In this document: one piece after another, positions 53,330-61,096 of the stretch | Layout: each line of letters begins with the position of its first letter | Numbering within the stretch: the first letter of the stretch is position 1 | Origin: Acidobacteriota bacterium | GTDB taxonomy: Bacteria; Acidobacteriota; Terriglobia; Bryobacterales; Bryobacteraceae | Reading direction: 5' to 3' | DNA length: 64,000 nt | Assembly: GCA_014584705.1 (NCBI GenBank) | Contig: JACTMJ010000002.1 | Location: 74,914-138,913, forward strand | Translations under genes and position numbers: made by a program | The notes under the pieces: model-generated | Seen by the model: the letters and a program-made list of their open reading frames with translations, nothing else | Databases searched by the model: none | What the model was told of the DNA's origin: nothing

Positions 53330-53841
53330 ACTCCTCCGCGTTTCTCTTCCGGCGTCTTCCACCCCTGAGCCACGACCAATGCCTCCCCCTCGCGAACCAG
53401 GTGAGGGGTACGCATTTCCAATTCCGCGACGAAAGCCGCCTTCTCGCGCGGGCTGATGAGCACACGCTGCGTACGCCCGTAGCGGATCAGAAGGCGATCA
53501 AAGCTCCAGGCGGGCGCGCTGGCGAGGCTGCGCGACGGCTCCACCCTGGTGATCGACAATAGAGGAATCCGGATTCGCAGCAAGCCGCTCCGAACCACCA
53601 GTTTGTCCGATTCGAACGAGTATTCACACGGGTAGGCGATCGCCCACATCGCCGCCAGGACGCCCAACGGCAGCGCCACCAGGCCGAGATCGATGGGCTG
53701 AGAAGAACCCACCGCGGAACCAAGCAGCCAAGCCGGCACACCCAGGGCGAGGAGAAGGTATGCGGCCGCAATAACACCCAACCAGCGGTCAACGCGGGTG
53801 GGATAAAGGCCGGCGGAGTCTCGCGTCGTCCTCTGTTCCAT
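53326..53841 (-). CDS. membrane protein with bacterial PH-like domain
   Basis: Two TM helices, then YSFESDKLVVRSGLLRIRIPLLSITRVEPS...FDRLLIRY, typical of bPH/YdbS-like domains. Family-level guess. Confidence 0.45.
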   Translation of the reverse strand: MEQRTTRDSAGLYPTRVDRWLGVIAAAYLLLALGVPAWLLGSAVGSSQPIDLGLVALPLGVLAAMWAIAYPCEYSFESDKLVVRSGLLRIRIPLLSITRVEPSRSLASAPAWSFDRLLIRYGRTQRVLISPREKAAFVAELEMRTPHLVREGEALVVAQGWKTPEEKRGGV

Positions 53842-53972
53842 CGCACAAATGCCCAACCGGGGCCTCTACCTTCCAGTAAACTATAGCCACATGCACGGCG
53901 GGACATCGGCTGCGGATCGGGCGGACGGTATCCCGCGGCAAGCGGCAGATCGGGTCACGGGGGAATCGGCAG

Positions 53973-54965
53973 ATGCAAAGACGCACGTTTCTTCACGCTT
54001 CGGTGGGCGCCCTGGCGGCGTCACCGGCACTGCTGGCCGCAAGCGACATGCCCACCCGCCCTCTCGGAAAGACCGGCTTGACGGTGAGCCAGTTCACTCT
54101 GGGCGGTTATCACATGCGCGTGGGAGGGCCTCGATCGGGAATTCATCTCATCCATCGCGCGATCGAACTGGGGGTAACCCATTTCGACAGTGCGCGGGGA
54201 TATCACGGCGGCGATAGCGACGCCACCTATGGGAATGCGCTGGCGGGCGGACTTCGCCGCAAGGTGCTTCTGATGTCGAAGAGCAACAAGCGAGACGCGG
54301 CGAGCGCGATGACGGAACTCGAAGACACGCTGCGGGATATGAAGACCGACTACCTGGACCTTTGGGTATGCCATGAAGTCGGCAGTATGGACGAAGTGGA
54401 CCGTATTTTCGCGCCCGGCGGCGCGGCGGAGGCATTTCGCAAAGCCAGGCAACAGGGCAAGGCGCGCCATATTGGTTTTTCGGGTCATCGCGACCCCGAG
54501 GTGCATTTGCGCATGATGCGGGAGACGGACCAATGGGAAACCGTGCAGATGCCCATCAATCTGGTGGACCCGCACTACTTGAGTTTCCTGACGACCGTGA
54601 TGCCAGGCGCGCGCAAACGCGGCATGGGCGTGCTCGCGATGAAATCGAACGCGATGGGCTCGATCAGCCAGAAAGGCATCGCGACAATCGAGGAATGCCT
54701 GCGATTCACTCTTTCCCAGGCGCCGGATTCGCTGGTTTCCGGTGTCGAAACCATCGAACAACTGGAACAGAACGTGGCCGTCGTCAAGGCCTTCCAGCCC
54801 ATGAGCAAAGCCGAGCAGGATACGTTGCTCACTCGAACAAAGAAGGGAGAGACCGGCGTCGGGGTGGAACGGTATAAGAAGCCGGTGGTGGGGGCACAAA
54901 GCATGCCCACCTATCTCGATGGCGAAGGAGGCCGGGGTGGGTCTCGCTTCGGAGCCACAGTCTGA
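53973..54965 (+). CDS. Tat-exported aldo/keto reductase
   Basis: Twin-arginine signal MQRRTFLHASVGALAASPALLAA. AKR motifs FDSARGYHGGDSD, DLWVCHEV, HIGFSGH. Confidence 0.88.
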   Translation: MQRRTFLHASVGALAASPALLAASDMPTRPLGKTGLTVSQFTLGGYHMRVGGPRSGIHLIHRAIELGVTHFDSARGYHGGDSDATYGNALAGGLRRKVLLMSKSNKRDAASAMTELEDTLRDMKTDYLDLWVCHEVGSMDEVDRIFAPGGAAEAFRKARQQGKARHIGFSGHRDPEVHLRMMRETDQWETVQMPINLVDPHYLSFLTTVMPGARKRGMGVLAMKSNAMGSISQKGIATIEECLRFTLSQAPDSLVSGVETIEQLEQNVAVVKAFQPMSKAEQDTLLTRTKKGETGVGVERYKKPVVGAQSMPTYLDGEGGRGGSRFGATV

Positions 54966-55740: not shown

Positions 55741-56595
55741 CTATGCCGCTCTGGGAGCGGCGAACACAGAGACTTTTTCCAGGATCTCCTGCTTAAGCGC
55801 GTTTGGGTTGGTGTCGATACGGCGGCGAGCGGGTTGCGGCAGCATATCCACCAGGTCTTCAAACGAGTAGGTATCGGATTCAGGGGTAACGGAGAAGCCA
55901 ATCAGGTTCGTAATTCGGTTCGTGATCCGCAGCAGGTTTCCCAACTCCCGGTCGCCCGGTTCCGGAGCCTCGTGATGGGTTTGGGCAACGAAACGGACTT
56001 CCGGAGGCAGGCTCCATTCCGCGGCCAGCCATGCTCCGGCCATGCAGTGGTCGATATCGAAAATGTCGAGTTCCGCCTGGATCAGCGGCAGCCCTTCCTC
56101 GGCGGCGACGTCGAGCAAGCGCGCATACTCTTGCGGATAAGCGGTCATCATCCCCAAGCGGCCCACATCATGCAGCAATCCCGCCATGTACGCCCGTTCC
56201 GCCGGAATCCCGCAACCGCGGGCGACGTTTTCGGTGAGCACCGCGCACGCCAGGCAGTGGATCCAGCAATCGAGCAGCCGCTGATAGCGGAGCGCGGATT
56301 TGATCTGTGCGTTCAAGGCCACCATCATCACCAGAGCTTTCACCCGCTCGAGGCCAACAATCGAGATGGCGTGGGCAATGTCGCTGACCTGCTGGGAGAA
56401 GCCAAACAGCGAAGAGTTTGCCAGTCGCAGGAGTTCAAAGGAGAAAGTGGGATCAATCCGAATGACGTCGGAAAGCTGTGCATTGGAAACATTCGGATCC
56501 TGCAACAGGCCCAGCAGGCGGTTGGCCACCGGCGGAAACGGCGGCAGTTGCCGCAGTGCCCAAGGGTATTTCGGAATCGAATTCAACTTTTCCAT
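55741..56595 (-). CDS. stand-alone HDOD-domain protein
   Basis: LPPFPPVANRLLGLLQDPNVSNAQLSDVIRIDPTFSFELLRLANSSLFG...ISIVGLERVKALV...GLLHDVGRL is a typical HDOD domain. No other domain was recognised. Confidence 0.88.
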   Translation of the reverse strand: MEKLNSIPKYPWALRQLPPFPPVANRLLGLLQDPNVSNAQLSDVIRIDPTFSFELLRLANSSLFGFSQQVSDIAHAISIVGLERVKALVMMVALNAQIKSALRYQRLLDCWIHCLACAVLTENVARGCGIPAERAYMAGLLHDVGRLGMMTAYPQEYARLLDVAAEEGLPLIQAELDIFDIDHCMAGAWLAAEWSLPPEVRFVAQTHHEAPEPGDRELGNLLRITNRITNLIGFSVTPESDTYSFEDLVDMLPQPARRRIDTNPNALKQEILEKVSVFAAPRAA

Positions 56596-56715: not shown

Positions 56716-56742
56716 TTATCGGCTCCTCCGGCGAAAGGTTTA
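56716..56742 (-). promoter_or_regulatory. sigma-28 (FliA) promoter upstream of the HDOD gene
   Basis: The minus strand reads TAAA-cctttcgccggagga-GCCGATAA, an exact consensus with a 15-nt spacer. The -10 element ends about 120 nt upstream of ATG 56595. Confidence 0.75.
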
Positions 56743-58409: not shown

Positions 58410-58434
58410 AGCGGCCCCGGCCTCGCGGGCCGCT
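58410..58434. terminator. hairpin between convergent fumC and the Roadblock gene
   Basis: agcggccc-cggcctcgc-gggccgct (8-bp stem). The flanks are weakly T-rich on both strands. Confidence 0.45.
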
Positions 58435-58490: not shown

Positions 58491-59051
58491 CTAGCCCTCG
58501 CGCGCGAACTCCTGCACGGAACTGTGTTTTTCCGCGTCGCGGTAGAGCGGATCGTCGTCATCGGCGGGCGATGTGCTATAGCTTTCGAGCGAAGCCAACG
58601 CTTGCAGGGTGCGCCGCATGCTGCCCTGATCCTCTTCGTCGCGGGTGTCTTCCCGCTCTTCGAGCGCGCGAGCCTGCTCTGGATCGAGTATCCCCAGAAT
58701 TTCGTCCGCATACTTGCGGGAATAGTACATCACCATCCCGATGCTGCACCCCTCGTAGGCAACGGCGGCCAGTACCGCGCGGTTCCCCACCGCTACCACG
58801 CTCACCCAGCCCTCGAAGCCCTTGAAGCAGACTTCCTGCAATGCACCGCAGCCGCCTACTTCGGCCACCCGCCGTCCAATGCCCAGGGAAGATGCGCTCA
58901 GCGCGGCCAGGGCCTCCGCCTGATCGTTAAGATTCCGGTGCGTCACCGCTACGCCGTCCGCCGTAGCCAGCAAACAGCCACGAATGCCGCGTGTGGAGGA
59001 AGCGAGCTCCTCCAATGGGATTTCGATTTGTCGCAGGGTTTGCTGGTCCAT
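58491..59051 (-). CDS. Roadblock/LC7 (MglB-like) domain protein with acidic C-terminal extension
   Basis: GIRGCLLATADGVAVTH...SLGIGRRVAEV...GWVSVVAVGNRAVLAAVA matches the Roadblock/LC7 fold pattern. Lies 15 nt downstream of the GTPase gene. Confidence 0.8.
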   Translation of the reverse strand: MDQQTLRQIEIPLEELASSTRGIRGCLLATADGVAVTHRNLNDQAEALAALSASSLGIGRRVAEVGGCGALQEVCFKGFEGWVSVVAVGNRAVLAAVAYEGCSIGMVMYYSRKYADEILGILDPEQARALEEREDTRDEEDQGSMRRTLQALASLESYSTSPADDDDPLYRDAEKHSSVQEFAREG

Positions 59052-59066
59052 GGCAGAATTGTACTC

Positions 59067-59621
59067 CTAAACGAGGCTAAATGATCCTTCAGATCTCAAA
59101 GAGTTCGATTTCGGTGCCACGTACTCAAAGAGGATCCGCAGCGTTTCAAGAGCGCTCTCCCGGCTCCTTGCATCCACATTTACAACACAATCCGGAGGAA
59201 CCCCAAGATAAATCCCTACTTCTTCAGGCGGCCATTCTTCACTGAGATCGGTGCGCGTAAGTCCTATGACGGTTGGTACGTCGATGAATTTCTGGAGGAA
59301 CTTCAAGGTCTTCTTTGCTTCGACAAAGCAGGCCGGGCGGTCTGCCGCCACCAGCAGAACGAGGGCGTGCGCGCCATTGCATGTGACCTCCCAGAGGAAA
59401 TCGAAGCGCTCCTGGCCGGGCACACCGAAAAGCAGAATCCGGACATCGTCCACGTCCATCGTCCCGAAATCGATGCCGACCGTGGTTCCCACCTTCCCGA
59501 TGTCTTCGCTGGCGAGAACATCGGTGTCCACAAATGGCGTATCGGACAGTGTGCGAACAAATGTGGATTTTCCGGAGCCAACCGGCCCTGCAACGAGGAT
59601 TTTCGCGACGTATTCCTGCAT
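59067..59621 (-). CDS. small Ras-like GTPase of the MglA/CvnD (COG2229) type
   Basis: GGGGAG followed by 5 nt then ATG 59621. P-loop GPVGSGKST. G3 is FGVPGQERF, with no Asp as in MglA/CvnD. The G4-like motif is TRTD instead of NKxD. Confidence 0.8.
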   Translation of the reverse strand: MQEYVAKILVAGPVGSGKSTFVRTLSDTPFVDTDVLASEDIGKVGTTVGIDFGTMDVDDVRILLFGVPGQERFDFLWEVTCNGAHALVLLVAADRPACFVEAKKTLKFLQKFIDVPTVIGLTRTDLSEEWPPEEVGIYLGVPPDCVVNVDARSRESALETLRILFEYVAPKSNSLRSEGSFSLV

Positions 59622-59810
59622 TCCGACTCCCCTGAACTCGTTAGCCCGCGTCCGCCTACGAACACTTCGCATCGGATACAACGCCGTGATCACGATGGGG
59701 CTTGCGACAATTCCACTTTCCCCGAGATTGCCGGGGAAAGGTAGGCGAAGATAAAAGAAAGCCATTCCAGCACAACACCAAACCGGTAGGCCTTTGGTTT
59801 ATCCCGGCGG

Positions 59811-59839
59811 TGTAAGTGATTATACAAGAATCACTTACA
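59811..59839. repeat. 11-bp perfect inverted repeat with a 7-nt spacer in an AT-rich gap
   Basis: tgtaagtgatt-atacaag-aatcacttaca, followed by the 8-bp palindrome tagtacta (59845-52). Lies about 190 nt upstream of the GTPase ATG. Confidence 0.9.
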
Positions 59840-59974
59840 TAAGCTAGTACTATATGGTTAATTTTGACAATCCTGACCGGGTTTAGGCCGGGAAAGCGGT
59901 TCGTCCGCTGCCGAAATGGCTGAAATTGGGGCGGAGACGGGGAATCGGATGAGCAAGCACCGCCGGCTGAGCGC

Positions 59975-61069: not shown

Positions 61070-61096
61070 ATATCGGCGTTGGAACGCAGATCTTTA
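61070..61096 (-). promoter_or_regulatory. sigma-28 (FliA) promoter upstream of gmd
   Basis: The minus strand reads TAAA-gatctgcgttccaac-GCCGATAT (15-nt spacer). Lies in the 125-nt gap between the upstream gene stop (61114) and the gmd ATG (60988). Confidence 0.7.

Follow-up and report, generated by a model that had tools for sequence, protein, structure and literature searches.

In prokaryotes, pairs of a small Ras-like GTPase and a Roadblock protein are related to the Rag/Ragulator and SR-type switches of eukaryotes. To our knowledge, bench studies exist only for MglA/MglB and the actinobacterial conservons. Here, we report a two-gene pair of this kind, encoding a small Ras-like GTPase and a Roadblock-type regulator, from a soil acidobacterium of the order Bryobacterales (assembly GCA_014584705.1, 99% complete; contig JACTMJ010000002.1, positions 74,914 to 138,913, a stretch of 64,000 nucleotides that is called the window below and in which all positions are counted). 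In our judgement, the pair is probably a minimal G-protein switch, in which a GTPase of the Groups 2-5 type of the MglA family is combined with a co-evolving MglB-like Roadblock protein, likely a GTPase-activating protein (GAP), under regulation from a leader of its own. The evidence comprises the identity of the family, the motifs and the fold, the conserved operon and leader, fusions found in relatives, and the phyletic pattern.

The prokaryotic MglA family has been split into five groups (Wuichet and Sogaard-Andersen 2014; PMC4316618). In Group 1 (MglA proper), an intrinsic arginine stands beside the G2 threonine and the motifs TVPGQ and NKxD are present, while Groups 2-5 have threonine in place of that arginine and share GTPGQ; Groups 2 and 3 are further marked by a G4 without lysine and an unusual G5 that reads DAR, and the MglB partners coupled to Groups 2-5 have a common Asp-Gly pair. 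The non-Group-1 type takes in actinobacterial CvnD/MfpB, the beta/gamma-proteobacterial Group 3, and the PATAN-linked Group 5; in Acidobacteria, the same survey found Group 1 only and no member of Groups 2-5. MglB is a GAP whose structures show that it acts without an arginine finger (PMC3199381, PMC6785124), and in Myxococcus xanthus its acidic C-terminal helix (Ct-helix) gives an allosteric exchange like that of guanine nucleotide exchange factors (GEFs). D/E-rich tails occur on MglB homologs of all five groups, and a positively charged α5 of the GTPase co-evolves with them (PMC6785124). For MfpB, the Roadblock protein MfpD was reported as the GAP and the DUF742 protein MfpC as the GEF (PMC13015309).

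GTPase family, motifs, and fold

Judged by its motifs, the GTPase is of the Groups 2-5 (CvnD-like) type. It is a single domain within the family limit of 240 amino acids (aa), with GVPGQ in G3 (family pattern, G[TV]PGQ), the Thr-Thr pair T46-T47 in G2, and a coupled Roadblock gene, and, as in the variant of Groups 2 and 3, its G4 lacks lysine and its G5 is DAR. A first-pass annotation of the window, made from the letters alone, had classed the pair as a GTPase of the MglA/CvnD type with a coupled Roadblock partner, and this assignment holds, every motif that it flagged fitting the published signature of Groups 2-5 (PMC4316618). The G1 GPVGSGKST, the G3 VPGQE without Asp, the G4 TRTD, and the length of 184 aa were all confirmed on the translation of the open reading frame (ORF). 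Because the motifs of GTPase and partner match that signature, those described as "non-canonical" are family hallmarks and not oddities of this protein.

The best Pfam match was PF03029 (ATP_bind_1; 1.2e-12, 48.6 bits, cut-off 27), followed by weaker Ras and Arf matches; PF03029 was also found in 84 of the 84 GTPase homologs, the named ones being called ATP/GTP-binding protein, and NCBIfam gave no equivalog for either protein of the pair. The names of homologs place the source organism in the Bryobacterales (Acidobacteriota). Thirteen positions are invariant in an alignment of 67 homologs (G12, G15, G17, K18, K43, T46, T47, D51, G53, G66, P68, G69, and Q70). The AlphaFold2 model built with these 67 homologs is confidently a small-GTPase fold (predicted local distance difference test [pLDDT], 83.5; predicted template modeling score [pTM], 0.81). 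Foldseek matched it to Rab, Arf, and Arl structures and also to MglA, at template modeling (TM) scores of about 0.7, with Thermus thermophilus MglA from its complex with MglB (3t1q_A) in rank 4 (TM, 0.71-0.73; 23% identity); in these structure searches, no solved structure was clearly nearer to the GTPase than the others. In a quick tree, in which an MglA outgroup sequence served solely as the root, the GTPase grouped with GTPGQ-type relatives, far from MglA.

With the Group 1 systems of M. xanthus and T. thermophilus, the pair shares the Ras-like fold, PGQ in G3 without Asp, a Roadblock gene adjoining the GTPase gene, and, as in the M. xanthus Ct-helix, an acidic C-terminal extension on the Roadblock partner. 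It differs from them in having T46 where Arg53 stands in MglA, with no intrinsic arginine finger, in GVPGQ for TVPGQ and TRTD for NKRD, in an identity of only 21-23% to MglA, in the gene order (GTPase, then Roadblock), in a partner that reaches 24.9 bits on the NCBIfam MglB model against a cut-off of 200, and in that no RomR/RomX or Frz context was seen at the pair. By these features the pair is not MglA proper, the Bdellovibrio type included, and the MglB-MglA polarity paradigm invoked in the annotation is the wrong one for a GTPase that has neither arginine finger nor TVPGQ.

Taken alone, TRTD in place of NKxD might mean that the protein binds ATP or another nucleotide, or that it is a non-cycling pseudo-switch and no GTPase in practice. 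Both the Asn and the Lys of NKxD are indeed absent, and the best Pfam family bears the name "ATP binding." Threonine at the first G4 position falls within the accepted motif [NT]KxD. However, the base-specificity residue, Asp125, is invariant in the 19-member clade, T[RKH]xD is the usual G4 of the wider clade, and the catalytic residues of G1, G2, and G3 are intact, unlike those of an orphan paralog described below. GTPase activity has been measured for CvnD9, which likewise has a deviating G4, and the arginine of DAR was proposed to make up for the missing lysine (PMC4316618). We consider either of these readings of TRTD highly improbable.

The last 16 residues of the GTPase (…ESFSLV) are predicted to be disordered, and its C terminus, E-[SEG]-S-F-[SA]-[LM]-V-COOH, is conserved throughout the clade; it is possibly a docking or degradation signal.

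Roadblock partner and its tail

The partner had been described as a 186-aa Roadblock/LC7 protein with an acidic tail of ~60 aa. A Pfam search bore this out, with a match to PF03259 (Robl_LC7; 1.5e-8, 34.7 bits) above the cut-off of 23, and the tail, which starts at residue 123, is 64 aa long, with 19 D+E and 8 K+R (net charge, −11). Matches to known structures included 7f8m (1.1e-10), Rv3364c/MfpD (9hef; 3.7e-6), and CvnB5 (3leq; 2.7e-3), with MglB only at 0.1-0.7. The D32-G33 pair of the core aligns with the ADG of 7f8m.

Across the clade, the tail is laid out as DPEQAR, an acidic stretch, GSMRSALRALAALD, and a variable acidic end. In outline, an acidic helix precedes the conserved motif GSMRxALxALAxLD, and the tail is kept in about 22 members of the clade. 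Of the two features that go with an allosteric acidic Ct-helix of MglB (PMC6785124), a D/E-rich extension of >15 residues is present, but a positively charged α5 in the coupled GTPase is not evident (see below); the tail is predicted to be helical, at low pLDDT.

Operon structure, distribution, and genome content

Both genes and the unchanged 15-nt spacer were found in all 10 genomes of the genus (identities of 72-97% and about 70-96%), so that the arrangement is not a matter of chance, and copies from metagenomes that have diverged further, to as little as 67% identity, are arranged in the same way. The pair was absent from all 31 other genomes of the family or order Bryobacterales that were sampled. 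It is a genus-specific accessory and not part of the flagellar core.

The GTPase gene ends in TAG, and the in-frame gap of 15 nt is unchanged, in 14 of the 14 intact-pair loci checked. The TAGGAG formed by this stop codon and the bases after it is a Shine-Dalgarno sequence for the Roadblock gene, and the two genes are therefore probably translationally coupled; the overlap of stop codon and Shine-Dalgarno sequence is most likely the reason why TAG and the in-frame spacer stay constant. This constancy (59052-59069) extends to every locus down to 67% identity. A 232-aa ORF from 59765, which would give the GTPase a coding N-terminal extension, was rejected, since relatives retain neither its upstream ATG nor its frame.

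The neighbors of the pair are unrelated housekeeping genes, gmd upstream and a convergent fumC downstream. Between the Roadblock gene and fumC, a GC-rich hairpin read by eye probably serves as a bidirectional terminator closing the operon; the consensus terminator scan missed it because its T-run is too short. As part of the switch proposed above, the pair is probably a self-contained two-gene operon.

The source genome has a single Roadblock gene and gave no match to DUF742 (PF05331) or PATAN (DUF4388, PF14332) and no CvnA-type kinase anywhere; neither a kinase nor a DUF742 gene flanks the pair. The annotation was thus right that the pair lacks the sensor kinase and DUF742 genes of conservons, at the locus and genome-wide.

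Comparison with conservons and PATAN-linked systems

The pair resembles the conservon systems (CvnA-D/MfpB-E) in its PF03029 GTPase, in the G2 and G3 signature, and in a Roadblock partner with similarity to CvnB5 and Rv3364c/MfpD, and the GAP logic is likely to be the same. In contrast to them, its genome has neither a CvnA-type kinase nor a DUF742 protein (CvnC/MfpC, the reported GEF), its G4 is TRTD and not NxFD, and its GTPase lacks the extended switch-I insertion of the Pseudonocardiaceae conservon GTPase. With gmd and fumC as neighbors in place of the four-gene unit, the pair is not a conservon.

As in Groups 2-5 (PMC4316618), a single-domain GTPase with the G2 Thr-Thr, G[TV]PGQ, a G4 without Lys, and DAR is coupled to an MglB homolog that has the Asp-Gly pair. 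Within this set the pair is nearest to PATAN-linked Group 5 in architecture and to Groups 2 and 3 in its G4 and G5 motifs. It is not of the PATAN-linked Group 5 architecture itself, being reduced to two genes, without PATAN, kinase, DUF742, or a second MglB, and its Roadblock protein carries a 64-aa tail with a clade-specific motif.

The pair therefore belongs to an already described family and makes no new category. What the locus adds is an extension of the non-MglA branch to Acidobacteria, where the branch is stripped down to a GTPase and a Roadblock protein. It offers a simple system for studying the effect of a Roadblock dimer, on its own, on a Groups 2-5 GTPase without an arginine finger. 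Of the side observations, two stand out, namely, the conserved leader and an orphan paralog of the GTPase that occurs throughout the genus and in which G2 and G3 have decayed with loss of the catalytic residues.

Conserved leader and the flagellar context

Directly upstream of the GTPase start lies a non-coding leader of ~240 nt that is kept in 12 of 12 distinct Bryobacterales loci, although the genes upstream of it differ; since the leader goes with the pair and not with any one upstream gene, the pair is probably regulated on its own. A conserved block, yTGTACTGCnATGCCTT-N4-TTATCTTCGCCTA, lies at −165 to −130, and the 13-mer TTATCTTCGCCTA is unchanged in all but one of the 12 loci, the most divergent locus (L051) showing one change. 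A GTACTA box lies near −237, the GTAC box being kept everywhere. The inverted repeat GTAAGTGATT-N7-AATCACTTAC is confined to the closest relatives; a related palindrome stands in L003 and L004, and it is lost in L005-L010. Two variable hairpins lie between and after the conserved blocks, and the arm sequences of the second differ between lineages.

The leader is unique in the genome, in which the 13-mer and nhmmer profiles of the leader match only this locus, with no second site that would make a regulon motif. Rfam gave no family at the gathering threshold across the window, only a chance snoRNA match (E = 1.8). RNAalifold scored the leader at −3.85 kcal/mol, with an outer helix of invariant columns only, and single-sequence folding z-scores ranged from −3.4 to +2.2; neither establishes an RNA structure. 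The leader may act as a promoter (yTGTAC-N16-TATCTT) combined with an operator, or else as a structured 5′ untranslated region (UTR).

The annotation had placed the pair downstream of a sigma-28-preceded gmd in a genome with flagella and had suggested a role in motility or polarity. The context is as described, in that a near-consensus sigma-28-like motif (TAAA-N15-GCCGATAt) precedes gmd and the genome encodes flagellin. Read-through from the gmd promoter, possible in the source genome since no terminator is predicted before the GTPase gene, would put the pair in the FliA (sigma-28) regulon as a motility or polarity module like MglA/MglB, and a perfect sigma-28 site stands before a nearby HDOD gene. 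Polarity is under the control of MglA in Group 1, and in Snodgrassella, behavior that depends on type IV pili is affected by a Group 3 system (PMC11112851). Against such a role, gmd and the GTPase gene are separated by 353 nt that contain the pair-specific leader, in which there is no sigma-28 motif. Only the five closest genomes, which form one subclade (L001-L005), have gmd upstream of the pair, whereas in L019 and L009 the leader is kept beside a DUF72 gene. Flagellin is encoded in 31 of 41 genomes, among them all 15 other genera of the family, and 21 of the 31 genomes without the pair have it. The Group 1 features (arginine finger, TVPGQ, and NKxD) are missing as well. The context thus stands, the link to motility or polarity finds no support, and we rate that link as decidedly unlikely.

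The site before the HDOD gene, which stands alone, is the only exact match in the window to the sigma-28 consensus, TAAA-N15-GCCGATAA (1 match; 0.01 expected by chance).

Proposed mechanism

A natural 327-aa fusion of GTPase and Roadblock domains (P0089), in the same order as in the operon, serves as a Rosetta stone and indicates that the two proteins act on each other. Together with the conservation of the operon, it backs the GAP/GEF-type regulatory role that had been given to the Roadblock partner. In the mechanism that we infer by homology, the Roadblock protein would most likely dimerize, and the dimer would dock on the switch regions of the GTP-bound GTPase. There it would, most likely as a GAP, speed hydrolysis by positioning Gln70 without supplying an arginine finger, in the way shown for MglB and reported for MfpD. 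The acidic helical tail may add a second contact, either for allosteric nucleotide exchange, like the Ct-helix of MglB, or for the docking of an effector; since the genome has no DUF742, exchange would be either intrinsic or helped by this tail. The GTP-bound GTPase would be the output and would act on an effector. Expression would probably be set by the conserved leader and not by the flagellar sigma-28 promoter of gmd.

Several results weigh against this switch or lend it no support. The complex was modeled as one chain (58494-59621, minus strand, translated with the in-frame TAG read as Gly; mixed paired and unpaired alignment), and this model, with a single Roadblock protomer, showed no confident docking (pTM, 0.50; switch-I pLDDT, ~40); α2 of the Roadblock domain also had a low pLDDT. 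With its single protomer, this trial speaks neither for nor against docking. No GEF partner, whether DUF742 or RomR/RomX-like, was found. A positively charged α5 is not evident in the GTPase, which has a net charge of −10 and in whose α5 (RESALETLRILFEYV) the only basic residues are R154, at the first position, and R161. A scan with the sigma-70 consensus found no promoter for the pair, and no terminator was predicted between gmd and the pair.

A different division of labor would make the Roadblock protein mainly a GEF or a scaffold, as Ragulator/LAMTOR is for the Rag GTPases, with the long tail as a platform that holds the GTPase and perhaps also the orphan paralog. The genome offers no other GEF candidate (no DUF742 and no PATAN) and has one Roadblock gene for two GTPase paralogs, the tail motif GSMRSALRALAALD is amphipathic and strongly conserved, and eukaryotic Roadblock and longin platforms act as GEFs (PMC3747258). 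The characterized bacterial partners, MglB and MfpD, are nonetheless GAPs, and the Roadblock protein has the Asp-Gly pair of MglB proteins coupled to Groups 2-5. We regard a role mainly as GEF or scaffold as quite unlikely and keep to a switch in which the Roadblock protein would act as the GAP.

Table 1. Positions of the genes, motifs, and noncoding elements of the pair and its surroundings
Feature	Position	Strand	Remarks
GTPase ORF	59067-59621	minus	184 aa; ATG start; GGGGAG Shine-Dalgarno sequence 6 nt upstream
G1	residues 12-19		G12-PVGSGK-S19
G2	residues 46-47		T46-T47; Thr in place of the MglA arginine finger
G3	residues 66-70		G66-VPGQ70, then E; no Asp; catalytic Gln retained
G4	residues 122-125		T122-R-T-D125; Asn and Lys of NKxD absent
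G5	residues 150-152		D150-A-R152
GTPase C-terminal tail	59070-59117 (residues 169-184)		…ESFSLV
Intergenic spacer	59052-59066	minus	exactly 15 nt; stop codon plus next bases read TAGGAG; both genes in the same frame
Roadblock/LC7 ORF	58491-59051	minus	186 aa; downstream of the GTPase gene
Roadblock core	about residues 12-122		D32-G33 pair within ATADGVAV
Hairpin	58411-58433	.	GC-rich, GCGGCCC-N9-GGGCCGC; between convergent Roadblock gene and fumC
Conserved leader	59622-59860	minus	~240 nt, noncoding; directly upstream of the GTPase start
Palindrome TAGTACTA	59845-59852	minus	in leader; beside the inverted repeat
Inverted repeat GTAAGTGATT-N7-AATCACTTAC	59812-59838	minus	perfect, 10 bp; surrounds a TATAAT
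13-mer TTATCTTCGCCTA	59742-59754	minus	in leader; invariant apart from L051
AAAGTGGAAnTGTC	59706-59719	minus	in leader; after the TTATCTTCGCCTA block
Sigma-28-like motif	61070-61096	minus	before gmd
Exact sigma-28 consensus	56716-56742	minus	before the HDOD gene
HDOD gene	55741-56595		stand-alone

Orphan paralog

A second GTPase gene, without a Roadblock neighbor, is present in the genome (C2 of G000, 53745-54368; as L013, 7746-8369, plus strand) and encodes a protein of 207 aa that is 40% identical to the GTPase of the pair. It was found in 9 of 9 assessable genomes of the genus, partially in some, and in none outside it; it was not detected in one genome (G001) that is 84% complete. The P-loop and the G4 (TKSD) are intact, whereas the G2 has decayed from TT to TP or GP and the G3 to VPAGN, ISAAS, or LPCRN, without Gln. 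On these residues, the paralog is probably a nucleotide-binding pseudo-GTPase. An active GTPase, a long-tailed Roadblock protein, and the pseudo-GTPase could together make up a three-part, genus-specific device, gated by an undescribed cis-element in the leader (a structured 5′ UTR or an operator), an arrangement that we think unlikely.

Relatives and their gene contexts

A search of a library of 1.84 billion representatives gave 1,565 relatives of the GTPase at an E value of ≤1e-3 and only 11 at ≤1e-30. Among outside homologs of known gene context, the closest is P0022 (52% identity), whose gene is clustered with those for a histidine kinase, a response regulator, a PATAN-like protein, a Roadblock protein, and a protoglobin, in the order kinase, regulator, PATAN-like, GTPase, Roadblock, protoglobin. 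A Herpetosiphonaceae locus (L024) has the order PATAN-GTPase-Roadblock, and in the locus L054 a PATAN-like ORF directly precedes the GTPase gene, with no Roadblock ORF within the fetched stretch. The loci of Aquitalea, Rhodoferax, and Kangiella have a Group 3 layout, in which unknown proteins and the GTPase are accompanied by one to three Roadblock-sized genes, and those of Pseudonocardiaceae are full conservons (kinase, Roadblock, DUF742-sized ORF, and GTPase).

Other close relatives are fused to further domains, namely, a BLUF blue-light sensor domain in P0090 (340 aa) and N-terminal regions resembling a winged helix-turn-helix in P0092 and P0101, which suggests light- or DNA-linked versions of the switch. 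From these fusions, the family appears as a signaling switch with interchangeable inputs.

Four contigs of "Candidatus Melainabacteria" metagenome-assembled genomes (L033, L043, L048, and L049) carry conservon loci of actinobacterial appearance. In the one pair read in detail, the proteins encoded by L033 are nearly the same as those of the Pseudonocardiaceae locus L032, and these metagenome-assembled genomes are likely misbinned or contaminated.

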